64,000 nucleotides of DNA from an uncultured Staphylococcaceae bacterium (GTDB lineage Bacteria > Bacillota_I > Bacilli_A > RFN20 > CAG-826): contig CAZLUI010000004.1 of NCBI GenBank assembly GCA_964562705.1, positions 1,503 to 65,502 on the forward strand, read 5' to 3'. The position numbers were made by a program, and so were the translations under genes. Positions within the stretch are counted from its first letter, which is position 1, and every line of letters starts with the position of its first letter. The notes under the pieces were generated by a model. The model had not been told where the DNA came from and made no database searches. It saw only the letters and a program-made list of their open reading frames with translations. Shown here piece after piece: positions 6,459-40,545 of this stretch.

Positions 6459-8240
6459 TTAACTAGCACGGTAAAGTTGTGGAAGCAACATTGTTGGGCC
6501 TGTGGCTGATGCGTAATTAAGGAATCTTGGGGAAGAAACGTTATATAAAATTCTTCCATAGGCAGTTGTTGCACTTTGAATTGTCGCATTTCCAGTTGCT
6601 GAGTCAATTGAGATATCCCAAGAGGTATCTCCACTATCCCAGGCAGCTTTCTTAGCAGCTGTTGCACCTAATAATTTAGATGAGTATGAAAGTGTCCAAG
6701 CACCGCTTGCACCACCCAAAGTTAACGCGATAGAATCAGCACCTAAACTAGAGATTGTTGAGCCATCGGCAGCAAAGGTTGAGGCAACAGATGATAAGAA
6801 GACATTTGTGCCACTAAAGTCACCAGCTGTGAAACCGGTGTTTGAAGCGAGAACAAGGACATCGCCAACTGCTAATGTTGAAGCATCAGAAACAAGTGAA
6901 TATGTGACTGACACTGGAGCACTTAAAGCGATTGAAACTGGATCAGAAGTGACTGAACCAACTGAAACGGTGATTGATTTGGATTCACCATCAGCTTCCA
7001 CAAATGTATATGGAAGTGTAACTGAACATGTGTAATCAGCAAATGCAGCATCTTCAGCTCCGCTTGCACGGACTGCTTTGACGACTAATTCACTAGCAGT
7101 AAGGGTTTCACCATATTTCTTGGCAGTTGGTGCACTTGTAATAACAAGTGAAGCAACTGGATCAGCAGCGGCGATAACGATTGAAATTGCAGCAGAGACA
7201 ACACCATTTGCAGTTGCGGTAACAGTGACTGTTCCATCGGCAGTTGCGGTTAATACTGAACCTGCAATTGTTGCAAACTCAGAACCAGAAGCGATTTGAT
7301 ATGTAACTGCATCAGCAGCTGCTGATGGTGTTAAGTTAGCACTTAAGTTAACTGTATCGCCAACATAAACTGATGATTTATCAGCAACACATTCAACGCC
7401 TGTAGCGTGGACAGCGTGTTCTGTTGAAGAAACGATAATCATCTCATTCCAAGCAGTATCACTGCCAATGAGATAAGCTTTGACATCATAGTATTTGTCA
7501 ACGTTTTCAGCAACACCAATGGTTGAGACTGATTCACGAGCATATTTTGTTGCTTCTGAATAGTCTGTACCATCAACAAATTTTAAGTTGTAGTAGGTAC
7601 CGTTTTTGTAGACTTTAACAAGACCAGTAATCATTGTTAATCTTGATGAAGCAATACTGAATGCATCCCAGGATGCAAGTGTCATGGCTGAACCTTCTGG
7701 TACAGCGATGTGTGGGTCAGTGCCTTCGCCTGCAGCAATAACAATACCATCTTTACTGATTTGGCGGTTACCATGATAAGTTGAGGTTGTTCCAGAGACT
7801 CTGACGAAATCTCCAACTGCTTTTCCTGTATCTGTACCTTTGTAAGCGTAGATAGCGCCTGTTGCATCAGCAACAACAATACCTTTAGCAGTGACTGCTG
7901 TAACGCTTCCTTCAATGACAACTGCTTGTTCAGCTGCTAAAGCATAAACTTCTGCAATTGTTGAAACAGAAACAACTGGATCGGTACTTGAACTAGAGCT
8001 TGATTCTGAGCTGGAGCTTGAGCTTGATTCTGAACTTGAACTTGAGCTTGATTCTGAACTTGAACTAGAGCTTGATTCTGAGCTGGAGCTTGAACTTGAT
8101 TCTGAGCTGGAGCTTGAACTTGATTCTGAAGTTGTGCTTGTATCAGAACTTGATGACGAGCTGCTTGATGATGGGTTTTCACCACATCCAGTCAACGCGA
8201 GCATAACGGCTGGTAATAGAACGAATAATTTTTTATTCAT
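6459..8240 (-). CDS. surface lipoprotein with Ser-rich low-complexity repeats, a possible OB-fold region and Big_2-like Ig domains
   Basis: Signal peptide plus lipobox (LALTGC); (SSSSSSSE)x6 repeat; Big_2-like block (VYVGDTVNLSANLTPS...TVTVTATANG); noticeably GC/Ala/Thr/Ser-rich relative to its neighbours. Confidence 0.7.
   Translation of the reverse strand: MNKKLFVLLPAVMLALTGCGENPSSSSSSSSSDTSTTSESSSSSSSESSSSSSSESSSSSSSESSSSSSSESSSSSSSESSSSSSTDPVVSVSTIAEVYALAAEQAVVIEGSVTAVTAKGIVVADATGAIYAYKGTDTGKAVGDFVRVSGTTSTYHGNRQISKDGIVIAAGEGTDPHIAVPEGSAMTLASWDAFSIASSRLTMITGLVKVYKNGTYYNLKFVDGTDYSEATKYARESVSTIGVAENVDKYYDVKAYLIGSDTAWNEMIIVSSTEHAVHATGVECVADKSSVYVGDTVNLSANLTPSAAADAVTYQIASGSEFATIAGSVLTATADGTVTVTATANGVVSAAISIVIAAADPVASLVITSAPTAKKYGETLTASELVVKAVRASGAEDAAFADYTCSVTLPYTFVEADGESKSITVSVGSVTSDPVSIALSAPVSVTYSLVSDASTLAVGDVLVLASNTGFTAGDFSGTNVFLSSVASTFAADGSTISSLGADSIALTLGGASGAWTLSYSSKLLGATAAKKAAWDSGDTSWDISIDSATGNATIQSATTAYGRILYNVSSPRFLNYASATGPTMLLPQLYRAS
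7988..8135. repeat. about six tandem copies of a 24-bp unit (gattctga[ga]ct[gt]ga[ga]cttga[ag]ctt) encoding SSSSSSSE inside the lipoprotein gene
   Basis: Direct reading of the sequence; the unit periodicity matches the 8-aa protein repeat. Confidence 0.85.
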
Positions 8241-8498
8241 TATTAGTAATTCCTCCTTTTCTATTACTTATATTAAGTGGTAATGAAATCGTACGTTTTC
8301 CGTTACGCACAAAATAACGTTATAAAAATAACTTAATAAACTTATCAACATTCTTCGCAAAGCAAAATAATGTTTTCATGTACTAATATGTTAACATATT
8401 CTTCATTTGTTGCAAGAATTGAAAATTAATATGGTGACAATATGGGCATGTGTAGCCAATAGCAAACACTTCCATATAGGAGTATATTGTTTTGTATT

Positions 8499-9632
8499 AT
8501 GAGTGAAATAAAAAATAGGAATACTACTTTTTCTCTTTTATACATAGTGGGAATAGTGTTGGTTCTTTATAGACACTTTTGTCAGGGGCAAAATTTAATT
8601 TTTGAATATCTATTCATAACTAGCACGTACCTAGTTTATATTTTCTTTTTTTCGTCTGGTTATTTCTATAAAACAGACTCAGAGAGCCACCCGTTTAAGT
8701 ACATATGGCGAAAATTTTTAAAGCTAATAGTCCCTTATTTTATTGGCACAATAGCGTACGGAATAATTGGTATATTTGTTAAAGATTATTTACCAGATTA
8801 TCCAATCGCTCCTTTTACTTTTAAAACTGTAACGTACATCTCGTTAGTTAACGGCCTTCAGTTCTTTTTTAATTTAGGAGCTTGGATTTTAGTTTCTTTA
8901 TTTCTAAATGAAGTCATATATATGCTGCTTAGCAAAATATTAAAATTTAAGCATAAAGAATTGGTAATTTTTGGAGTATTTTTAGCAATTGGTATTGGAG
9001 GCTTGTACCTTTCATCGGATCCTATAAATTTTGAATGGAAATTGTTTATAGTTAGATTAATGGTTTCTTTACCATTCTACTCACTTGGTAACATCTACCG
9101 AGTATACTTAGAAAAAAATGATATCAAGATAAGCGCTTTGATAAAACTAATTACTTATATTGCTATTTTTGCAGTCGTTTCCATTTGCAACAACGGATTA
9201 CCAGTCGACTACGTTCCGTCTACCGGGAATGGTCTAACAACAAATCCAATGATTTATTATTTGTTATCTTTCGCTTCTATTCATTTCTGGCTTATTATTT
9301 GCACAAAATTATCAAAGTCCTTCGAAAATAATAAAACTGTTGATTATATAGCAAGCCATACTTTTTCAATTATGATGAACCATTTATTTGCTGTTTTTCT
9401 TTTAAAGTTGTTCTTTTATTCGATATCAGACCATCTAAATAATTTTTCAGTAGAAGCGTTTAAGGGTGACTGTTGGTATTTATATATGCCCTATGGAAAT
9501 AGAGGATTTGTAATTTTGTACATAATTTGGGCAATAGCGTTCTCACTCTTATTGTCATACCTATATTCCCTATTAAAAAAGGGGGTAATTAAATCTTTTA
9601 AAAGCATACAACATGTATTGTGTAAAAAATAA
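8499..9632 (+). CDS. polytopic membrane protein, probable acyltransferase family 3 (OatA-like)
   Basis: About 10 predicted TM helices, extremely AT-rich with F/Y/I bias; an N-terminal ...YRHF... region resembles the acyltransferase_3 start. Start is uncertain: the track uses a TTG at 8487, whereas the ATG at 8499 lies 15 nt from an AGGAG. Confidence 0.45.
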   Translation: MSEIKNRNTTFSLLYIVGIVLVLYRHFCQGQNLIFEYLFITSTYLVYIFFFSSGYFYKTDSESHPFKYIWRKFLKLIVPYFIGTIAYGIIGIFVKDYLPDYPIAPFTFKTVTYISLVNGLQFFFNLGAWILVSLFLNEVIYMLLSKILKFKHKELVIFGVFLAIGIGGLYLSSDPINFEWKLFIVRLMVSLPFYSLGNIYRVYLEKNDIKISALIKLITYIAIFAVVSICNNGLPVDYVPSTGNGLTTNPMIYYLLSFASIHFWLIICTKLSKSFENNKTVDYIASHTFSIMMNHLFAVFLLKLFFYSISDHLNNFSVEAFKGDCWYLYMPYGNRGFVILYIIWAIAFSLLLSYLYSLLKKGVIKSFKSIQHVLCKK

Positions 9633-9673
9633 AATAAAAAGCCCTGCAGTTTCCTACAGAGCTAATTAGCATT

Positions 9674-9750
9674 TATGGTTGTCTAAGGTCAGTTATTCAA
9701 TTTGGTCTAAAATTCTCCATTCACAATTATGTCGTACAACTTAGACTTCG
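9674..9750. repeat. 77-bp direct repeat, copy 1 (left boundary of the accessory island); continues into an 11-bp-stem hairpin tctccattcac/gtgaatggaga
   Basis: Identical to 12856-12932. Copy 1 alone has the right hairpin arm at 9750-9760. Confidence 0.9.
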
Positions 9751-9861
9751 TGAATGGAGACTTTTGAATCCACAAACCTTTCGCCTGTTGGGTAAAAAAG
9801 ATTTACGCAAAGCAGCAATTTAAACTGGTTTTAATGAAAGTTAATCTGATAAAATCTGTCG

Positions 9862-11151
9862 TTATTTAAATATGCTTCTAATTAATGAATATCTCGTATC
9901 ATACATTATATTCTTTAGAGCTAAATTGTTCTCGTACGAAACGGATAACAACTTGCTGACTTTATCAGACATTTCTGAAGCTGAAATACTAATTTTTCTT
10001 AGCTGGTTATTAATGGTGGAAAAACCATCATAGAGAGTAGTTTGTAATCTTTCAAGATTAATGTTTGCTTTGGTTAAGTTCAATATTACTTTTGCACGAT
10101 ATTTTTCTTCTTCAAATAAATTAATTGCTTCTTTCCAATTATCTGCTCTTCCACTTTCCAAAAGTTCGATAACAGCAGATAGTACCTCAACAGTTCTATA
10201 TTCAACAGGAACGTTAAACATTTGTTCAAATAAGATTTTTTTATCCATTAAATCTGCATAACTGTTTATCATTTCATGGAAATGTTCTTTTACATAATTA
10301 AATCGTTCTGAATGCAACTTAAAAAATGCGTCTCTTTTTTTAACAGCGTCTCTTATACATTCTGAAACTTGGTGACCGATGGGTAGAGTCGTTTTTTCTG
10401 TCACAGTTTTTGTTGCATCGCTAAAAAAACTAGCCACTAACACTCTGCGAGTTCTAGTTCGAGTAATTACAACGTCGGCAACATCGTTTGGAGCGTTTTT
10501 AATGAAGTCAAAGACATTACTGTCTCCACCAAGCAAACTATCACCAAGGTTTTTTTCATATTTGTTATCAACTGTGGACAAAGAATATGTTATCTCATCT
10601 TCGCTTCCAAAATTTTTTGCTCTGTCTTGTTCGTACGCTTCATCAAACAACTTTTCTAATCTTTTATATAATTCACCGTCATAACTAAATAACTCGTCGT
10701 AAAAGTTGTAAGGTGGCATATCGAAGAAGAATAACTTTCTTCTCATAACAGAATCCCAGTTAAGGTTAAGATCAGAAAATTCTATATTCTCTTTTAGATG
10801 AATTTGCTGATTTCTTATAAAGTCCCCATTCATATTCCAAAACTCATGGGAGTTAATTTTATATTCAGCAGGGTCATCTAAGTTTGTGTCGCACAAAAAC
10901 CAACACTCATAGCCGGTAAATGCATTGATATATTGCACCCAGTTTTTCAAAATTGAAATCAATTGACTTTTATTAACCTCTTTGGGATCGGATTTGATTT
11001 GAATTGCGTCGCTAGTTTTTTCTTCAACTTCTGTAAGAAGTTTTTTTGCTTCTTCTAGAGAATATTCCGTCCCACAATCTTGGCAAACAAAAACTCCATT
11101 TTCCTTCTTTATTGACTGACTTCCACATATTTCACAAACCATTTTTTTCAT
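9862..11151 (-). CDS. hypothetical protein with N-terminal zinc ribbon (CEICGS...CQDCGT), 429 aa; the remainder has no recognisable family
   Basis: Long clean ORF; the CxxC-x14-CxxC lies at residues 6-26; overlaps the upstream gene by 4 nt (translational coupling). Confidence 0.6.
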   Translation of the reverse strand: MKKMVCEICGSQSIKKENGVFVCQDCGTEYSLEEAKKLLTEVEEKTSDAIQIKSDPKEVNKSQLISILKNWVQYINAFTGYECWFLCDTNLDDPAEYKINSHEFWNMNGDFIRNQQIHLKENIEFSDLNLNWDSVMRRKLFFFDMPPYNFYDELFSYDGELYKRLEKLFDEAYEQDRAKNFGSEDEITYSLSTVDNKYEKNLGDSLLGGDSNVFDFIKNAPNDVADVVITRTRTRRVLVASFFSDATKTVTEKTTLPIGHQVSECIRDAVKKRDAFFKLHSERFNYVKEHFHEMINSYADLMDKKILFEQMFNVPVEYRTVEVLSAVIELLESGRADNWKEAINLFEEEKYRAKVILNLTKANINLERLQTTLYDGFSTINNQLRKISISASEMSDKVSKLLSVSYENNLALKNIMYDTRYSLIRSIFK

Positions 11152-11567
11152 CTTTCGCTTACTCCTTTCAACACTTTTGCAGTCTTTTTCTTAAAGTCGA
11201 TTGAATAGTAAAAAATATTTTTTCCTTTATTTTGAAGCAAAAACCTATTAGAAAGCATAGAAACATTGTTACTTTTGAAAACAATAATCACCGAATCATT
11301 TGACAATTGTGTTTCGGTAAAACGCCCGCATCCTATTACTTTGGACGATACACTATTAAAATGCGTTTCATATATATAATCGTTAACAAATACGATAGCC
11401 GAATTGTTTTTTCTATTTTTTAAAAAAACCGGATTACGAATATAAGAATTAATTTGAATATTGTACTTATAAAAATCATTAATTGCTTTCTCAATGCTTT
11501 CAGAAATCGCGCTTAAGTCTTCCTCGTCTACAAATAATCTTAAAAGGCATTCATTTTCGACATCCAT
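11148..11567 (-). CDS. hypothetical protein (139 aa), first gene of a two-gene operon with the zinc-ribbon protein
   Basis: ORF whose stop overlaps the start of the downstream gene; no recognisable motifs. Confidence 0.5.
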   Translation of the reverse strand: MDVENECLLRLFVDEEDLSAISESIEKAINDFYKYNIQINSYIRNPVFLKNRKNNSAIVFVNDYIYETHFNSVSSKVIGCGRFTETQLSNDSVIIVFKSNNVSMLSNRFLLQNKGKNIFYYSIDFKKKTAKVLKGVSER

Positions 11568-12197
11568 ATTTAGATTTATTTTAGTCTACTAACAAACTAA
11601 TAACAAGCACTTTAAAGCACTTAATTTATAACGATTTAGACTTAGCCCACGGACTTTTTCATATGCTTTGAGTTGTAATCTGCGAACCATTTACAAACTT
11701 AGCAATTTTAAATTGGTTAGAAAATGAGTGACCAAAAGAAACATTGTCGCCTTAACCCGTCATTAGAGTTTTTGGAGTTTTGCTTGAGTAAACACCAAAT
11801 TCGGTTTTTTTCACTAAATTCGGCATAAAGATAACTAAGCGACATTAAAAACAAGATAAATTGTAATCTTAAGTGCAACACTTCGATATAGCTTCAGACC
11901 GGTCTTTAAAAACGGGGCGCGGAATGTTAGTAAGTAAGGTATTTGTTAGGTCTATGTGATAAAGCTTGGTGGTGAGTTTGTTTGGAGCTTTAAACTGAGT
12001 TTTATGATAGCTGTGGTCTGATGTAAGTATGAAGTGAGAGCTTGTGTGTTTATATAAATATAACTTGCGGGCTGAGAGAGTATATTTTGGTGGAGTTGGG
12101 CGGGTAAGTATTAATAAGAAAGACTAAATAAAAAGTAAGTAAAATATAGTTTGTTTTTTTATAAGGGCGGGGAGAGAAGAATTAGTTAGTAAGTATT

Positions 12198-12231
12198 AAA
12201 AAAAGATCTAAGGTTAGTAGATCTTTTTTTA
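12198..12231. terminator. bidirectional intrinsic terminator (A7-agatcta-aggttag-tagatct-T7) within repeat unit 1
   Basis: Perfect 7-bp stem flanked by an A-run and a T-run. Confidence 0.7.
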
Positions 12232-12733
12232 GTTTTGTATGTAAGTATCTATGTTAATTATTGAATAGAGTTTTGTGTCTAAGTTTGAATAATTTGTTTT
12301 AGATAATTACATGACTGTCGTTGTCCAAGCTCGCCCATCCAGTTTTGTCTGAGGTCGCCCATCCATATTATGTCGTGTTTTGAGACAGTCGGGAGCGGGC
12401 GAATACGAATTATTTTTGCTGTGGGACGGAAGCTTTGCAGAAGACGTGTTTTGAGCTGCAGCCTGGTATTTGCTTAGGTATTGCGACAAAGCTTCTGTAT
12501 GGGCTTGTTTGATAGCTTAAAATGAGTCTGGTCGCAGGGTTTAAGCAAGGGCGGCAGGCTGGGCGGTTGAGGGGAGGTTTATATTAATATATAAGGTGAG
12601 GTAAGTAAGTATTATTTGTCTATATAGGATGAGAGTAAGTAAGTTGGTTGTTCTATATATATGGGAAATAAGTAAGTGAAAAGATATATATGACTAATAT
12701 TTTTTTATAGGGGCGGGGAGAGAAAGAAAGTAT

Positions 12734-12765
12734 AAAAAAGATCTATGGGTGAGATAGATCTTAAT
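12734..12765. terminator. bidirectional intrinsic terminator (A6-agatctat-gggtgag-atagatct-T-rich) within repeat unit 2
   Basis: Perfect 8-bp stem with an A-run upstream and a T-rich tract downstream. Confidence 0.65.
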
Positions 12766-12855
12766 TTGTTGTTTTGTTGTTAATAATTATCTATGTTTGT
12801 TGAATAATAATGTTTAGACTATTTTGAATGATTTGATTTAGATAATTACAATGAC

Positions 12856-12932
12856 TATGGTTGTCTAAGGTCAGTTATTCAATTTGGTCTAAAATTCTCC
12901 ATTCACAATTATGTCGTACAACTTAGACTTCG
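12856..12932. repeat. 77-bp direct repeat, copy 2 (right boundary of the island core); lacks the right hairpin arm seen in copy 1
   Basis: Identical to 9674-9750. Internally made of two ~22-bp subrepeats (ttgtctaaggtcagttattca / ttggtctaaaattctccattca). Confidence 0.9.
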
Positions 12933-12977
12933 CGAATAAGAAAAAACCAGGCTTTTACACCTGGCTAGTTTGGAATT

Positions 12978-13409
12978 TTAGAATTCTAGTTTTTTGCCTT
13001 TAAGACAATCTTCCGTGCTTGGCTCTGGTACACCACTACAACTCATTTCACTTTCTATTTCCAGAATCGGCTTGTATAGAAGATCTAATGTGTATAAGTC
13101 TTTGGCAATTGTTTCATATAGTTTTTTACGCTGCCCCACAAAACACTGACCTATTGCTTTAGCAATGTTAAGTAGAAAAGCCGATGTAATATCATGAGGA
13201 GTAGGTTCGCACCCCCAAAGCATAGATGTTTCCATGTCATAGTCATACTTCATTACTGACTGTTTAAACAACATTTCAAATCTACTATTACTTTCTTCCT
13301 TATATTCATCTTTAGTTTCTATAAGTTTATAAATAGTTGAACCTTTACCTTCTGGCCAAATACGCTCCAATTCCTTAAGCATCCATTCTTTTTTCATCCA
13401 TTCTTCCAT
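12978..13409 (-). CDS. hypothetical protein (143 aa), acidic/K-rich, no known family
   Basis: ORF with RBS aaagga about 9 nt upstream of the ATG; preceded by a conserved ~40-bp motif shared with the next gene. Confidence 0.5.
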   Translation of the reverse strand: MEEWMKKEWMLKELERIWPEGKGSTIYKLIETKDEYKEESNSRFEMLFKQSVMKYDYDMETSMLWGCEPTPHDITSAFLLNIAKAIGQCFVGQRKKLYETIAKDLYTLDLLYKPILEIESEMSCSGVPEPSTEDCLKGKKLEF

Positions 13410-13478
13410 AAATAATTTTCCTTTCTGTCATTTAAGACGCCACTATTATGTAATTTTTAGAAGTTCAAATGGTCGCTT

Positions 13479-13793
13479 CTATTGAGACAAAATATTTTCT
13501 GCATCTAATGTGAAATACAAAGTATCAATTGACTCATATTCACTACTTTCTATGGTTATTGAATTGTTACTTCTAAACCACACAATAAACTCTCTAGCTC
13601 CAATATTGAACTCGTTGATTTTTAGATCAGTAATAACAAATTTTAAAGTTGAATACCCATCCCTGTGATTAACTCTATTGGTACAAAGCACAACCGCATA
13701 GAAACCGATTTTTTCTAAGTCGCCATACCTATATTTTTTACCCGGTATAAATTTAAATTCATTCATACTTTTTTTCTCCTTTCGTGCCTCCAT
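13479..13793 (-). CDS. hypothetical protein (104 aa in the track). A better start is probably the internal MNEFKF (ATG at 13766, ~95 aa), which has aaggag 9 nt upstream.
   Basis: ORF; a strong SD precedes the internal ATG and none precedes the first ATG. Confidence 0.45.
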   Translation of the reverse strand: MEARKEKKSMNEFKFIPGKKYRYGDLEKIGFYAVVLCTNRVNHRDGYSTLKFVITDLKINEFNIGAREFIVWFRSNNSITIESSEYESIDTLYFTLDAENILSQ

Positions 13794-14017
13794 TATGAAT
13801 CTTTTGTAGTTTTAAATGGTCGCGTCCAGAGAGACAAAAAACTTACTCGCTAATAAATTGCTTACTTTAGTAACAAACGTGCGACAATGGACTCCTAAAG
13901 CAACAAAAAAGACCTGCACAGAAGCAGATCTCTTTATTAATTTTATAGCTGCCCACGCCGAATGGACGTTTTTGGCCAACTTCGGATAAGTGACTTTGGA
14001 CAACTACAGCATTCAAA

Positions 14018-14245
14018 TTAGTCTTGAATGTATGGTAGTAAACCCATGAAGCGGGCGTTTTTGATTGCTTTAGCCAGCTCTCTTTGATACTTAGCACATG
14101 TGCCAGTAGCGTGACGAGCGGCAATCTTACCGTTTGGAGTAATGAATTTGCTTAATAATTCAACATCCTTATAATCGATATGATCAATTTTATTCTTGGT
14201 AAAGTAACAAACCTTTTTGTGAGGTCTAATTTTCTTGAATCCCAT
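14018..14245 (-). CDS. rpsR: 30S ribosomal protein S18
   Basis: [41 protein letters not shown]...ARFMGLLPY. Confidence 0.95.
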
Positions 14246-14259
14246 TTTAATTTTCCTTT

Positions 14260-14682
14260 CTAGAACGGAAGGTCATCATCGGCGACATCAATAGAATCGA
14301 GATTCTTGCTATCGTCTACTGCTGGTTCATCTAGTGGAACTTCCTCATTAGGAATTTCTTTTGATTTTGGTTCAAGGAATTGAACTGAATCAGCAATTAC
14401 TTCAATGACAGAGCCTTTTGTTCCATCTCTTCTCTCGAATGTTCTTTGATGGATTCTACCATCAACACCGACGAGTGAGCCTTTGCGGCAATATTTTGCA
14501 ACGTTATCTGCTTGTTGATTCCAAACAGTAACTCCAATAAATGTAGTGGTCTTTTGGCCATTAGCATCTTTCATGCGATCATCCACTGCAATTGTGAATG
14601 AAGCAACTGGAACATCAGAAGTTGTTCTTCTTAGTTCTGGGTCGCGGGTTAGTCTACCCACGAGAATGATTCGATTAATCAT
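14260..14682 (-). CDS. ssb: single-stranded DNA-binding protein
   Basis: [20 protein letters not shown]-fold N-terminus, acidic C-terminal tail ending DDLPF. Confidence 0.95.
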
Positions 14683-14698
14683 TGTAAAACCTCCTTAA

Positions 14699-14986
14699 TT
14701 AGTCTTTATCAACCATGATTAAGTGACGTACAACGTTTTGGTCGATTTTAGCTAAACGGACGAACTCTTTCAAAGCTTCATCATCAGCTGTTACTTTAAT
14801 AACAACATAGTAGCCTTTTTTCATATCGTTGATTGGATATGCGAATTCACGTAAGCCCCATTCATTGACATTGGTAATGTTTGCACCTTTGCCGGTTAAA
14901 ATGGCGTGAAGTTTCTCGACTTCAGCTTTACGAGCTGCTTCGTCAAGATCTGCTTTCACGATGTACATAATTTCGTACTTTTTCAT
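14699..14986 (-). CDS. rpsF: 30S ribosomal protein S6
   Basis: MKKYEIMYIV start; rpsF-ssb-rpsR operon order. Confidence 0.95.
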   Translation of the reverse strand: MKKYEIMYIVKADLDEAARKAEVEKLHAILTGKGANITNVNEWGLREFAYPINDMKKGYYVVIKVTADDEALKEFVRLAKIDQNVVRHLIMVDKD

Positions 14987-15181
14987 ATAGGCACCTCCCT
15001 TTGGTCTTCTGGCTGTTATCTGTGTAACAGCAGAGAGAAATTGCGATTTCTCGCGTAGGCATTATATTATATATGCGTGCTTTTATTCAAGTTAATTCGT
15101 TTGTTGTACGCCTATGGATTCAAGTACCTCCGCTTACATATATAGCAAAACGAAAGAATATGTCCTTATTTGCAAGACAAA

Positions 15182-15208
15182 CAAAAACGATTCCCATAAA
15201 GGGAACCG
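15182..15208 (-). terminator. probable intrinsic terminator of lysS (minus strand: ggttccc-ttta-tgggaatcg followed by uuuuugUUU)
   Basis: Hairpin plus U-run about 18 nt after the lysS stop; imperfect stem. Confidence 0.4.
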
Positions 15209-15223
15209 TCTTAATTTTTGGGA

Positions 15224-16714
15224 TTATTTATTTGAGTCTCTCATGCATGGAAAGAGAATAACTTCACGGATGCTTTGTTGATTTGTCATCAGCATAACGA
15301 ATCTATCGATGCCGATGCCGATGCCGCCAGCTGGTGGCATGCCATAATCAAGGGCTTCAAGGAAGTCAGTATCCATTTCACTAGCTTCTTCATCACCAAG
15401 TTTTTTGGCTTCAAGTTGAGCTTCAAATCTTTCTTTTTGATCAATTGGATCATTAAGTTCGGTGTAAGCATTGCCGTATTCCATGCCACCAATAAATAAT
15501 TCAAATCGATCAGTGAACATTGGATTGCCAATTTCCTTCTTTGTTAAAGGAGACACTTCAATTGGATATGAATGAACAAATGTTGGTTCTTGTAGATATG
15601 GATCACACTTCTCATCAAAGAATGCATTGATAATAAAGCCAATACTTGTCCAGTGTTTTTCAACCTTAATTCCGTTCTTTCTTGCTAAAGCAACAGCTTC
15701 TTCAAAAGTCATTGGTTGGTTAAAATCAATACCAGTTGCTTCTTTAACAACATCAATCATTGTTACCCATCTAAATGGTTTGCCTAAATCTAGGGTCTTA
15801 TCGCCATAAGGAATTGTAGTTGAGCCCACAACTTTTTTAGCGACTTCTTTAAATAAATTTTCACAGAGGAACCTCATATCTTGAAGGTCACCATATGCTT
15901 GATATAGCTCAATAGTAGTAAATTCTGGGTTATGTTTTGTGTCCATTCCTTCGTTGCGGAATAAACGACCAATTTCATAAACTCTTTCCATTCCACCAAC
16001 AAGCAATTTTTTTAAAGGCAATTCGGTCGCAATGCGAAGATAAAAATCTTTGTCTAAAGCATTGTGATGGGTGACGAATGGTCTAGCTGATGCGCCGCCT
16101 AAAATTGGTGATAGCACGCTTGTTTCAACTTCAGTAAAACCTTGTCCATCAAAATAGTTTTGAATAGCGCGTATGATTTTTGGTCTTGCTAAAGCAATTT
16201 TCATAGAGTCGTCATTCATAATTAAATCAACATAACGATGTCTATATCTCTCTTCGACGTCTGTTAATCCATGAAACTTCTCTGGTAAAGGACGAAGTGA
16301 TTTGGTTAAATGAGTATATTTTTCAGCACGAACCGTCATTTCGCCAGTTCTAGTGAGCATAACTCTACCATAGACTCCAACGATATCACCGATATCGGCA
16401 AGTCTAAATAGTGAATATGCCTCTTCACCAACGACATCAATACCAACATATACTTGGATATTGCCACTCACATCTTTGATGTTCATAAACGATGCTTTCC
16501 CCATACGTCTTAAAGACATAATGCGTCCAGCAATAGTGACATAAACTCTGTTTGCGTCTAATTCTTCGTTTGTTTTTCCATCGCACTTTTCATGAACTGA
16601 TTTCACCGAATCACTTCTAATGAATTTTTGACCGAATGGATCAACTCCGAGTTCTTTGTATTTAGCAAGCTTCTCGCGTCTTACTTGTTCTTGATCTGAT
16701 AATTTTTCTTCCAT
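15224..16714 (-). CDS. lysS: lysine--tRNA ligase (class II)
   Basis: MEEKLSDQEQVRREKLAKYKELGVDPFG N-terminus, class II motifs; GAGG RBS 7 nt upstream of the ATG at 16714. The track ORF extends to 16762 as read-through. Confidence 0.95.
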   Translation of the reverse strand: MEEKLSDQEQVRREKLAKYKELGVDPFGQKFIRSDSVKSVHEKCDGKTNEELDANRVYVTIAGRIMSLRRMGKASFMNIKDVSGNIQVYVGIDVVGEEAYSLFRLADIGDIVGVYGRVMLTRTGEMTVRAEKYTHLTKSLRPLPEKFHGLTDVEERYRHRYVDLIMNDDSMKIALARPKIIRAIQNYFDGQGFTEVETSVLSPILGGASARPFVTHHNALDKDFYLRIATELPLKKLLVGGMERVYEIGRLFRNEGMDTKHNPEFTTIELYQAYGDLQDMRFLCENLFKEVAKKVVGSTTIPYGDKTLDLGKPFRWVTMIDVVKEATGIDFNQPMTFEEAVALARKNGIKVEKHWTSIGFIINAFFDEKCDPYLQEPTFVHSYPIEVSPLTKKEIGNPMFTDRFELFIGGMEYGNAYTELNDPIDQKERFEAQLEAKKLGDEEASEMDTDFLEALDYGMPPAGGIGIGIDRFVMLMTNQQSIREVILFPCMRDSNK

Positions 16715-38075: not shown

Positions 38076-39605
38076 TTATTTATGTTTTTTCTTATTAACA
38101 ATGGCTTGTGTTAAAAGTGACAATCCAAGTGAAATGAACGCACTTATTAACCAATACACACCCATAGCTGCAGGTAATGTGAAGCCCATGACGATAATCA
38201 TAATCATCATTCCATAACTTACGATAGTCATCGTTTTGTTTTGTTGTTTTTGAGCTGGATTAACACCTAATCTAGCAACTTTTTTAGTTTTTGCTTTAAC
38301 AATCCATTGTGGAACTTTCATTGATAGGAACTGTGCGACCGCCATCACGATGAATAAAACAAGAGCAGTCCACCAGCCATACATATTGCTTGGCATTCCA
38401 TCAAAATTGCTTAAGGCAGTCCAGATTGATGTTGAAAGATTTAAGTTCAAGAAAGTACCTGTAGATAATACAGCAGATCCAGTCATAGCACCCCAAACAC
38501 CAATAAAGATAGGGAACTGAACAACCATGATTAGAAGTTGCGATAAAGGATTAACTTTATTCTTCTTATATAGTTTCATCTGTTCTTCAGCTAAACGCTG
38601 CTTCTCAGATTGATTTGTGTTTGCGTTTGGATATTTAGCTTGAATTTTTGCTAATTCGGGTTGTAAAGCTTGAATCTTTTGTTGTCCATACGTAGCTTTG
38701 AATGTGATAGCAAAAATAATTAAACGAACAATCACAGTTACAACTAGCAAGGCTAATAATTGTGGCCAGCCTTGTAGCATTGCGCCTGAATCAAGGCCGC
38801 CAGCAAACGATGTTGCTAAAATATCAGTTAACCAGGCAACTGGATATACAATTAATCCAGAGATTGGTCCTTTTGACCAAGCATAGCCCCAATCCTTTTT
38901 GTTGATTTGGACCTGAATTTCATCTTGCCCGTACATTCCATATTTATAATCTTCAATAGCAATACAAGATTTTGTACCAGAAATTCCAGTATTCATTGTA
39001 GTCTGGTATAAAGAAACATAATCTCTTGTTGGACAAGCCTCAACACCTAGTTCAAAAGATAATTGGCTGTTAATAGCTTGATAATTACCCCAAACATTAT
39101 CTTCATCACCATAAAACTTATAGTAGCCAAAATCAGTTAAAGCGGACTCTGCTTCTTCTTTTGTTAAGATGGCTGGCGAATAAGCGGTATGAGATAAAGC
39201 AAGTTTTAAAACTTTATAATCAAATTCTTTAAAGTAATCACTACCTGGAACTGCATATTTCTTGTTTGTTGCAGTTTCGTTGATAGATGAAATTTGTTTG
39301 AATTTAACAATGCTACTACTTTCGCTGTTCCATTTGTAATAGTTATTTTTGCTATCAAATGTTACTTTTCGCCAAAGATTTTCATTTTCAGAAAATACTT
39401 GTTCGATTACATAAGAATATTCTTCATTCTTTTGTTCTTCCGCTTCAGCTTTTGAGCTAAAGTATTCAGTAACACCTGGTTCGATAGCAAAAAGAATTCT
39501 GCTCTTCTCTGAAGACATGCAGAAATTTGAAGTACAGCTAGAAGCAATGAAAGCAGACATCAATACGATGCCGCCGGTCAATACTAGTTTAGTTGATTTT
39601 TTCAC
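38076..39605 (-). CDS. yidC: membrane protein insertase YidC/SpoIIIJ-family lipoprotein, unusually long (509 aa) with a ~250-aa extracytoplasmic N-domain
   Basis: Lipobox FIASSC; C-terminal 5-TM Oxa1 core; basic tail KKKHK; position rnpA-yidC-jag. Confidence 0.85.
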   Translation of the reverse strand: MKKSTKLVLTGGIVLMSAFIASSCTSNFCMSSEKSRILFAIEPGVTEYFSSKAEAEEQKNEEYSYVIEQVFSENENLWRKVTFDSKNNYYKWNSESSSIVKFKQISSINETATNKKYAVPGSDYFKEFDYKVLKLALSHTAYSPAILTKEEAESALTDFGYYKFYGDEDNVWGNYQAINSQLSFELGVEACPTRDYVSLYQTTMNTGISGTKSCIAIEDYKYGMYGQDEIQVQINKKDWGYAWSKGPISGLIVYPVAWLTDILATSFAGGLDSGAMLQGWPQLLALLVVTVIVRLIIFAITFKATYGQQKIQALQPELAKIQAKYPNANTNQSEKQRLAEEQMKLYKKNKVNPLSQLLIMVVQFPIFIGVWGAMTGSAVLSTGTFLNLNLSTSIWTALSNFDGMPSNMYGWWTALVLFIVMAVAQFLSMKVPQWIVKAKTKKVARLGVNPAQKQQNKTMTIVSYGMMIMIIVMGFTLPAAMGVYWLISAFISLGLSLLTQAIVNKKKHK

Positions 39606-39934
39606 TATTTATTTCCTACTTTGCTTAATAAGTCACTGATATCTTCTTTGCTTACAGCAAAATTATCGATATCGTAGTTTCGCCGAGCTATAAAGATATA
39701 ATCGAAACCTTTTGTTATATCTAATTCAGTGTTCAGAATTGCTCGAATCTGTCTTTTCATTTTGTTACGAACAACGGCGTTGCCGCTTTTAGTTGGGATT
39801 GAGATTCCAACCCTGGCATAACCTAATTCGTTTGGCAAATAGTAAAGAGTGAGAGTTTTAGATTTTAAAAGCGATCCATCAGAAATTACTTTTTGAAATT
39901 CTTTATATTTCTTTACTCGATACTTTGATTTCAT
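39605..39934 (-). CDS. rnpA: ribonuclease P protein component
   Basis: MKSKYRVKKYKEFQKVISDG...; follows rpmH. Confidence 0.9.
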   Translation of the reverse strand: MKSKYRVKKYKEFQKVISDGSLLKSKTLTLYYLPNELGYARVGISIPTKSGNAVVRNKMKRQIRAILNTELDITKGFDYIFIARRNYDIDNFAVSKEDISDLLSKVGNK

Positions 39935-39943
39935 GAAAAATGA

Positions 39944-40078
39944 TTAAGCAGTTAAACTTGCTCTGCCTTTTTCGCGACGAGCAGCTAAAACTTTACGGCC
40001 ACTCTTTGTAGCCATTCTTGCACGGAAACCATGGACATTGCGTCTGTGGGTCTTGCTTGGTTGATAAGTTCTTTTCAT
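39944..40078 (-). CDS. rpmH: 50S ribosomal protein L34 (missing from the ORF track because it is under 60 aa)
   Basis: Manual translation: [44 protein letters not shown]. Confidence 0.95.
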
Positions 40079-40545
40079 TGAGTTAATCTCCTTGTGTTTT
40101 TACACGCGCTAAAAATTATATATGCACCCGCGCTATTAGTCAAAGATTATTTACGCACACTCGCTCGCGAGGTTTTCTGAATTCGTCAAGTTGAATTAAT
40201 AAATGAATATTTTCCACATAATAATAAAAATTATGAAGTTTTTTTCTATTCTTAGGTAAAAGTTTTAAAAATTGTCAACATGTTACTATTAAAATGTTAA
40301 TTTTGATATTTTTTCTTTATTTTTACATGAATCAGTCGAACATATTTAAGATTTTAGATAATGTTGATTTATATCTTTTCTGTCCACTTTTGAACAATAT
40401 AATTCGCATTTATCCACACAGCTTTGCACATTTATCACAAAATATGTTGATAACTTAGTTTTTAATCGATTAAATCCAACCATTTTTAGTGTTTTATTGT
40501 GGAAAATTCATTTTTTCTAAAATTGGATGTTTATTTTATCTTTGA
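40079..40545. promoter_or_regulatory. oriC: oriC part 1: AT-rich rpmH-dnaA intergenic region with DnaA boxes
   Basis: TTTTCCACA at 40210-18; TGTCCACTT at 40381-89; perfect TTATCCACA at 40410-18; TTATCACAA at 40432-40; TTATCAACA (minus strand) at ~40446-54; TTTTCCACA (minus strand) at ~40498-40506. Confidence 0.85.

Follow-up and report, generated by a model that had tools for sequence, protein, structure and literature searches.

Positions 9674-14008 of a 64-kb stretch of DNA from an uncultured Staphylococcaceae bacterium (GenBank assembly GCA_964562705.1, contig CAZLUI010000004.1) are three head-to-tail, transposase-less elements of one new family. The whole 64,000-nt stretch that was analyzed is termed the window, and coordinates given without a contig name refer to it. 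The elements, named E1, E2, and E3, end in terminal inverted repeats (TIR), and the array that they form lies between the ribosomal protein gene rpsR and an acyltransferase gene. E1 and E3, which carry genes, are mobile insertion cassettes (MIC), and E2, which carries none, is a MITE (miniature inverted-repeat transposable element). The best explanation is that the insert arose by a transposition-type insertion, with a 5-bp duplication, in the 14 nt that separate the rpsR stop codon from the terminator of the rpsR operon, and that these stacked non-autonomous elements are mobilized in trans. Taken as a whole, we hold this explanation to be highly probable.

Empty site, element ends, and target duplications

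An unoccupied form of the site is found in a conspecific strain. Four contigs (L045-L048), reached through a member of the same 90% cluster of SSB proteins, match the window over 12 kb with 99.6% identity but do not contain the insert. They read rpsR-TAATTTGAATGC|TAATT-terminator-acyltransferase, i.e. they correspond to the window minus 9674-14008 and one copy of GCATT, with a single GCATT left. Their junction (...CAAGACTAATTTGAATGC|TAATTAGCTCTGTAGG...) is, base for base, the predicted empty site; the rpsR stop codon and the terminator are 14 nt apart, and the acyltransferase gene comes directly after. A first-pass annotation of this DNA had called the segment accessory and proposed looking for an empty locus in close relatives, and this precise absence bears it out. 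More distant relatives also have the terminator within ~15 nt of the rpsR stop codon, with no TIR there. In the window, the two copies of GCATT, as read from the sequence, occupy 9669-9673 and 14009-14013 and flank the whole array. Two Logan unitigs, L049 and L050, break off precisely where the insertion lies (...TTTGAATGCT), which is consistent with a possible occurrence of both empty and occupied alleles in their samples (SRR33579977 and SRR16345327). Another Logan contig, L006 (9721-12885), was considered as a circular form and rejected, because its ends are de Bruijn unitig breaks inside the repeat described below.

The window contains a long direct repeat, 9674-9755 and 12856-12937, whose copies agree at 81 of the 82 positions, with no difference over the first 77 nt, and which is unique in the window; none of 100 shuffles gave a match like it. 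These are the two repeats that the first-pass annotation had correctly seen bracketing 9674-12932. It had missed a degenerate third copy at ~12316-12400, visible when the copies are aligned, an inverted copy ending at 14008, two homologous units of ~545 nt, and the true right boundary of the insert, which is 14008 rather than 13850. A degenerate pattern common to the three direct copies in the window matched four metagenomic contigs, and reading these exposed the transposon ends. The layout of the ends consists of a TGTnG terminus and two tandem 24-bp sub-repeats (TTGTCYAAR-N7-ATYCA), to which left ends add an invariant ATTATGTCGT. The conserved blocks TTGTCY and ATYCA therefore lie at ~6-11 and ~20-26 from the terminus, respectively, and are repeated at +24, giving TIR of ~50 bp. 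Termini are TGT..ACA in most copies, and 5'-TG...CA-3' is seen in left end B (E2), right end D (E3), the right ends of E1 and E2, and most ends in three other metagenomic contigs (L030, L031, and L051). A TIR profile built from 13 ends was scanned over the whole 64 kb. This profile matched only at 9675, 12316, and 12857 on the + strand and at 14008 on the - strand, with E values of 1e-12 to 2e-10.

These ends delimit three elements, all placed on the - strand. E1 (9674-12311, 2.64 kb) carries cargo genes. Its left end (9674-9750) is contained in left end A (9674-9755, + strand), which starts with TATGG, continues with the sub-repeats TTGTCTAAGGTC..ATTCA and TTGGTCTAAAAT..CATTCA and then ATTATGTCGT, and matches the TIR profile at 9675-9723 (E=2e-10). 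The right end of E1 is degenerate and finishes in ...GATAATTACA at 12311. E2 (12316-12850, 535 bp, TGTCGTTGTCC...GATAATTACA) is cargo-less and MITE-like, and its left end matches the profile at 12316-12365 (E=3e-11). E3 (12856-14008, 1.15 kb) again carries cargo. It starts with left end C (12856-12937), the first 77 nt of which are those shared with left end A, and finishes with right end D (13955-14008, - strand), which is inverted relative to ends A, B, and C, starts with TGTAG, and has the sub-repeats TTGTCCAAAGTC..ATCCG and TTGGCCAAAAAC..CATTCG. Profile matches are at 12857-12905 (E=2e-10) and 14008-13960 (E=1e-12), and right end D scores E=2e-16 with a right-end profile. The right ends of E1 and E2 (...TTTAGATAATTACA at 12311 and 12850) are AT-rich and degenerate; they keep the TGT terminus and both sub-repeats, which are recognizable by eye, and have an AGATCT-stem terminator hairpin, spaced as it is in right end D. 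That they are real ends is supported by their layout, by a terminus common to four copies, and by the target duplication of E2.

This duplication, ATGAC, was read from the sequence at 12311-12315 and 12851-12855, and the first A of the left copy is the last base of E1. Because the left copy contains the last base of E1, E2 inserted exactly in the 4-nt E1/E3 junction, ACA-TGAC-TATGG, duplicating ATGAC, and came later than E1 and E3. Two earlier histories can be envisaged. E1-TGAC-E3 could have moved by transposition as a single composite unit, or homologous recombination could have brought a circular E1, with abutted ends and a 4-nt spacer, into the left end of a resident E3. The outer GCATT, the TGAC junction, and the 77-nt identity between left ends A and C fit both.

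These boundaries change how the insert is to be described. Where the first-pass annotation had a single cargo module bracketed by repeats, there are three TIR-bounded elements, and the 82-nt repeat is the TIR of two of them. Nor is the ORF-free stretch (ORF, open reading frame; 1,410 nt, 11568-12977), which had been singled out as a structured region, a unit of its own. It is composed of E1's right arm, the complete E2, and the left end of E3; E2 and that arm are homologous, which yields the two diverged ~545-nt units, each stopping just before a repeat copy. We found no transposase or recombinase in the insert, as assessed by the ORF list and by Pfam, PADLOC, PHROGs, and NCBIfam, and no integrase is encoded in the 64-kb window, so the earlier remark that no integrase or transposase is visible holds. 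The mobility machinery is missing because the elements are non-autonomous.

An inward terminator hairpin on the - strand is present at each right end. That of E1 (12197-12231) has the AGATCT stem, a T-run, and 14-nt arms that are 100% complementary (inverted repeat I13), and was aligned with the equivalent right-end hairpins; that of E2 lies at 12737-12765; and that of right end D (13906-13935), found by a terminator scan, is also kept by right ends in L030 and L051. An inward terminator at every right end would insulate the cargo from rpsR read-through. A promoter-like TTGAAT-17-TACAAT, identified only by a consensus scan, lies inside the right end of E2 (12824-12852, + strand) and points outward across the terminus; promoter-like sites are not over-represented in the region overall.

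Related copies and a conserved hairpin block

Copies of the family with differing flanks are present in four other metagenomic contigs (L030, L032, L033, and L051). E2-type copies, 84-86% identical and with unrelated flanks, occur in L030 (8000-8455) and L032 (2856-3413). The L032 copy is a solo element with both ends, and its right end lies ~10 nt after the stop codon of an rlmD-like methyltransferase gene. An E3-type copy is found in L051/L052, 13 nt after a tRNA-Ala(CGC) gene; in L051 its identity to E3 is 97% for the right end, 91% for the 143-aa gene, and 94% for the left end. The arrays in L030 and L031 carry different cargo, namely a lipoprotein, NUDIX + DUF3990, and a RhuM fragment. 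Cargo genes are oriented from right end to left end in all six cargo-bearing elements, and abutting ends are separated by spacers of 2-8 nt, mostly 4-5 nt. AAGT in L030, considered as a flank repeat, was rejected since it represents two different junction spacers. Next to the E3-like copy in L051, with a 5-nt spacer (GCTAT), is a mini-element of ~127 nt (2156-2282), which is built solely from a sub-repeat resembling that of a right end, a hairpin, and a TIR resembling that of a left end.

Wherever a host flank is visible, the right end lies shortly downstream of a co-oriented gene (three of three cases), i.e. 9 nt after rpsR, 13 nt after tRNA-Ala, and ~10 nt after the rlmD-like gene. The three intervals are 14009-14017 in the window, 980-992 in L051, and 3414-3423 in L032. 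Placement 9-13 nt after a host gene suggests either targeted insertion or strong selection for placement.

Within E2, a block of 110 nt (12454-12563, + strand) forms a near-invariant hairpin. In three copies, 108 of its 110 columns are identical, compared with 221 of 340 for the rest of E2, which in addition has 134 gapped columns. The RNAalifold consensus of the block has an energy of -27.5 kcal/mol on the + strand versus -9.1 on the - strand. Alignment and RNAalifold identified a diverged paralogue in the right arm of E1 (11925-12045, + strand); between the two there are four compensatory pairs, and many of the + strand helices need G-U pairs. The + strand of 12311-12775 folds with a z-score of -3.3, and the - strand also beats shuffles (z = -4.1). 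On the + strand, GC skew rises to +0.55 within the ORF-free stretch, in surroundings where it is negative. No ORF is conserved across the block, Rfam returned no match at E <= 1 over 8000-16000, and the window has no tRNA or tmRNA genes. The consensus energies, the G-U-dependent helices, and the compensatory pairs favor a + strand RNA, for which the covariation comes from one diverged paralogue, and the block probably belongs to the element, in cis or as an RNA, rather than being a host gene. Further right in E2, at 12588-12659, a 33-nt unit rich in GTAAGTAAG, which places TAA in all three frames, is repeated in tandem (2.2 copies). This is the most variable and indel-prone part of E2, being deleted in L030 and different in L032.

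Mobilization and alternative explanations

Elements of this general kind have been described. Like MIC (e.g. MIC231 of Bacillus cereus) and bacterial MITE, the elements studied here are short, are bounded by inverted repeats typical of insertion sequence (IS) families, have no transposase of their own, carry passenger genes (as in MIC: E1 and E3) or none (as in MITE: E2), generate target duplications, and are present or absent between strains. They differ in that no cognate IS was found for their ends, which match nothing in phage, plasmid, and viral collections, in that they are stacked head to tail with ends 2-8 nt apart and one of them inserted exactly in a junction, and in that E2 keeps a near-invariant 110-nt hairpin outside its TIR. 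The module had been called undescribed, and this is true of the element family, which has no database match, but not of the MIC/MITE kind, which is already known; the family, the stacking at abutted ends, and the conserved hairpin are the new details. What seemed an island free of machinery becomes a mobile-element family that is defined and can be tested, in low-GC Bacilli that are uncultured and were recovered as gut and rumen-type metagenomes. Exact boundaries, an empty-site allele, and a TIR profile with which similar orphan-gene islands can be annotated are gained, and the array shows transposase-less cassettes stacking behind a ribosomal-protein operon. The E2 hairpin and the 9-13-nt placement go beyond a plain MITE model and could reveal transposase control or targeting.

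In the proposed mechanism, a DDE transposase encoded elsewhere would move the elements in trans. The most likely mobilizer would be an IS21-family pair (the transposase IstA and the ATPase IstB), because the end layout is the same: two direct repeats with two blocks each, a terminal CA, and a 5-bp duplication. In IS5376, a member of this family, each TIR contains two 23-bp direct repeats, each with two conserved blocks ~10 bp apart, the terminus is CA, 5-bp duplications were seen at all sequenced insertions, and IstA requires both repeats of a TIR (PMC10122671). Junctions of abutted ends are formed by the IS21, IS3, IS30, and IS256 families (PMC3299598, PMC9333248). In our elements the direct repeats are 24 instead of 23 bp, the blocks are likewise ~10 bp apart, the start is TGTC..., and the junctions resemble those of IS21 in having ends a few nucleotides apart. 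No istA or istB is found in the insert, the 64-kb window, or the related loci, as expected for a non-autonomous derivative, and this speaks neither for nor against IstA/IstB acting in trans. We put the probability of IS21-type mobilization at roughly one half.

Several observations weigh against this picture. Left ends A and C and the end in L033 start with TATGG, i.e. with TA where IS21 ends have TG, and beyond TGTC the ends have no sequence similarity to the IS5376 TIR. IS21 is not reported to favor sites 9-13 nt after a gene end, as appears to be the case here, and such placement (n=3) looks more like Tn7-like targeted insertion than like the weak target choice reported for IS21. The right ends of E1 and E2 were not detected statistically by the profiles, and there is no clean target duplication at the L032 solo copy or at the L051 element. 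Viral, phage, and plasmid collections and ~364 kb of related loci yielded neither an autonomous copy nor a transposase with such ends, so end architecture is the sole basis of the IS21 assignment. In these searches, blastn of the non-coding DNA gave one marginal match of ~60 nt, at the E = 0.01 limit, in phages and nothing in plasmids; a concatenated TIR query found nothing in plasmids; and pattern scans of viral contigs (unit motif, right-end motif, TIR consensus, hairpin block, and right-end core) returned nothing or chance matches.

Part of this evidence would suit mobilization by another heteromeric DDE system (Tn7-like, Tn552/Tn5053-like, or Mu-like), possibly one directed at conserved genes and their 3' ends. 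Tn7, Mu, and Tn5053 also have TGT..ACA termini together with a 5-bp duplication. Tn7-like elements have multiple transposase-binding repeats and place one particular end just downstream of a conserved att gene, as in our three cases, a pattern that selection could also yield, and in Tn7-like islands several elements and spare ends gather at one site. However, the ends studied here are symmetric, with exactly two contiguous sub-repeats each, whereas Tn7 has an asymmetric arrangement of three spaced and four contiguous TnsB sites. In addition, E2 went between resident ends, and elements abut at 2-8 nt, which the target immunity of Tn7 and Mu should block, near-identical ends use three different host genes, and no tnsABCD or tniQ is present in the insert or the window. 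As for Tn552, the two adjacent 23-bp transposase sites of its ends speak for such a system, and its duplications of 6-7 bp speak against it. We regard such a system as a possible but lesser candidate. A bolder reading, in which the elements would be more than passive passengers, is a cassette-accumulating transposase platform. It would insert new cassettes preferentially at abutted resident ends, in every case a few nucleotides downstream of a strongly expressed host gene, and would build integron-like arrays of orphan genes without an integrase, and the 110-nt hairpin would be an RNA that regulates the transposase or aids target choice; this we find improbable.

Three further readings were considered. 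The ORF-free 1.4 kb could consist of one host gene, or a pair of them, for a large structured non-coding RNA, the repeats being incidental. The strong + strand G excess, the + strand fold z-score, and the near-invariant hairpin with its G-U-dependent helices and compensatory pairs would suit this. It is nonetheless improbable, as the segment is absent from the 99.6%-identical strain, is TIR-bounded at unrelated loci in other contigs, and has no Rfam match. Moreover, just one diverged paralogue supplies the covariation, shuffles of the - strand likewise fold less well than that strand itself, and an element-borne RNA or cis-acting DNA site explains the conservation equally well. An integron-like cassette array, in which right end, spacer, and left end together would form a palindromic, attC-like site used by some recombinase and cassettes would be exchanged as circles, recalls clusters of attC sites without an integrase. 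Such clusters have small, co-oriented orphan cassettes parted by imperfect palindromes of ~100 nt. In the window, L030, L031, and L051, small, promoter-poor, co-oriented orphan cassettes are parted by imperfect palindromes of ~110 nt, and the D2 repeats described below exactly delimit a cassette that one copy has and another lacks. Against this, the array borders are half-sites with a 5-bp duplication, E2 carries its own duplication, L032 has a solo two-ended element, the cores are GACAAC / GTTGTC with no GTTRRRY/RYYYAAC attC core, and the window encodes no integrase, making this reading very improbable. Finally, a gene set without a recombinase and bracketed by long direct repeats, as in CIME-type elements, could be an integrative element or its remnant (cis-mobilizable or satellite), moved by a site-specific recombinase, with the 82-nt repeats as attL and attR. 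Because the conspecific empty site holds no part of the 82-nt repeat, whereas an attB should hold the core, duplication of an att core by this repeat is ruled out. The duplication at the true boundary is just 5 bp, the 82-nt repeat is one arm of an inverted-repeat pair, and the same ends bound elements at unrelated loci, all of which renders this reading extremely unlikely.

Cargo genes and host flanks

The four cargo genes are those listed by the first-pass annotation, which had termed them family-less, and none of the four proteins has a Pfam, PADLOC, PHROGs, or NCBIfam family. The only family matches are generic zinc-ribbon matches, below the cut-off, to residues 1-40 of the 429-aa protein. 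PADLOC, which had been suggested as a check together with structure prediction and remote homology searches, thus assigns no defense family. The largest protein, 429 aa, is encoded in E1 (9862-11151, - strand). It carries a CxxC..CxxC zinc ribbon at the N terminus, an alpha/beta middle, and a long coiled coil at the C terminus. Its family, which has no name, counts ~88 proteins, in which the zinc ribbon is invariant, the middle variable, and the C-terminal helical region conserved. Its AlphaFold model has a predicted local distance difference test score (pLDDT) of 83, and its fold matches in the PDB are coiled coils only. Relatives in genome collections come from metagenome-assembled genomes of rumen/gut Bacilli or Mollicutes. 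The contexts of the homologues vary (toxin-antitoxin, restriction-modification, DUF262, and IS3), but these genes never occur with the TIR described here, which indicates that the 429-aa protein is cargo and not machinery.

The second gene of E1 (11148-11567, - strand) encodes a 139-aa orphan, and its stop codon overlaps the start of the 429-aa gene by 4 nt (ATGA). Only two remote homologues of this protein were found among 1.84 billion representative proteins. One of them, P0247, has neither TIR nor a 429-like partner in its context, and none of the neighbors of 429-family genes elsewhere is homologous to the 139-aa protein. E3 encodes two more orphans on the - strand, of 143 aa (12978-13409, in a 90% cluster of eight members) and ~95 aa (13479-13766, or 104 aa from an upstream ATG at 13793), both of which have only close relatives in the collection. 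Since the cargo moves horizontally, the zinc-ribbon/coiled-coil family and the three orphans are reasonable candidates for conflict or defense roles, but nothing here shows such a role.

Two 62-nt repeats in E3, named D2 (13439-13500 and 13786-13847), bracket the ~95-aa gene and lie upstream of the 143-aa and 95-aa genes. The E3-type copy in L051 has no 95-aa gene, and this absence maps exactly to the D2 repeats. Because the missing part falls exactly between the two copies, D2 is a sub-cassette boundary, through homologous deletion or insertion; it may also be a shared promoter or operator. D2 (- strand) and inner left ends (GTCT..CGACATAAT) share the motif GTCTC-N-GCGACCATTT...CATAAT; the corresponding region of L051 is 1441-1560.

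The array is flanked on the left by the acyltransferase gene (8487-9632, + strand) and on the right by rpsR (14018-14245, - strand, stop codon 14018-14020). The insertion point is 9 nt after the rpsR stop codon, at the right end of the array, and in the window lies 5 nt upstream of the terminator stem. The intrinsic terminator of the rpsF-ssb-rpsR operon (9640-9663, - strand), found by a terminator scan, is also at the end of the acyltransferase gene, and the insert now parts it (9663-9640) from rpsR. In this low-GC genome, the window covers the part next to the origin, and the genes left of the origin are on the - strand. It includes rnpA (39605-39934) and, from 40546, dnaA, followed by dnaN-recF-gyrBA; the gap of 612 nt between rnpA and dnaA (39935-40545) presumably holds rpmH and oriC. 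Conserved core synteny had been claimed for both flanks of the insert. The claim holds in part, since the interval between rpsR and gdpP differs among relatives.

This whole interval is a variable surface-protein/accessory region in the clade. In the window it contains a gene for a 593-aa lipoprotein (6459-8240, - strand) with a long (S7E)n low-complexity linker. The promoter/signal-peptide region of this gene (8200-8275) is 83% identical to the start of the Flg_new_2 surface proteins, 1,030-1,060 aa long, that are encoded directly after rpsR in relatives (10948-14136 in L036 and 10943-14041 in L039). In another relative, whose SSB is 86% identical, TGTAAAAGTACAAAG begins 9 nt after the rpsR stop codon (L042 9521-9625, also in L043). 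A hairpin, GATCTATCTAAACAATAGATCTTTTTT, lies ~75 nt further, the surrounding ~45 nt are 82% identical to the terminator area of the E2 right end, and a HepT/MNT toxin-antitoxin pair comes next. This sequence could be what is left of a right end at this site, or just a native terminator of similar sequence, and the similarity is too weak for it to be counted as a relic right end. A second accessory hotspot in the same origin-proximal region is seen in a relative (L039/L040 2555-7261), where an SLFN/AlbA_2-HATPase gene and two Fic-domain genes lie between an ABC transporter gene and lysS.

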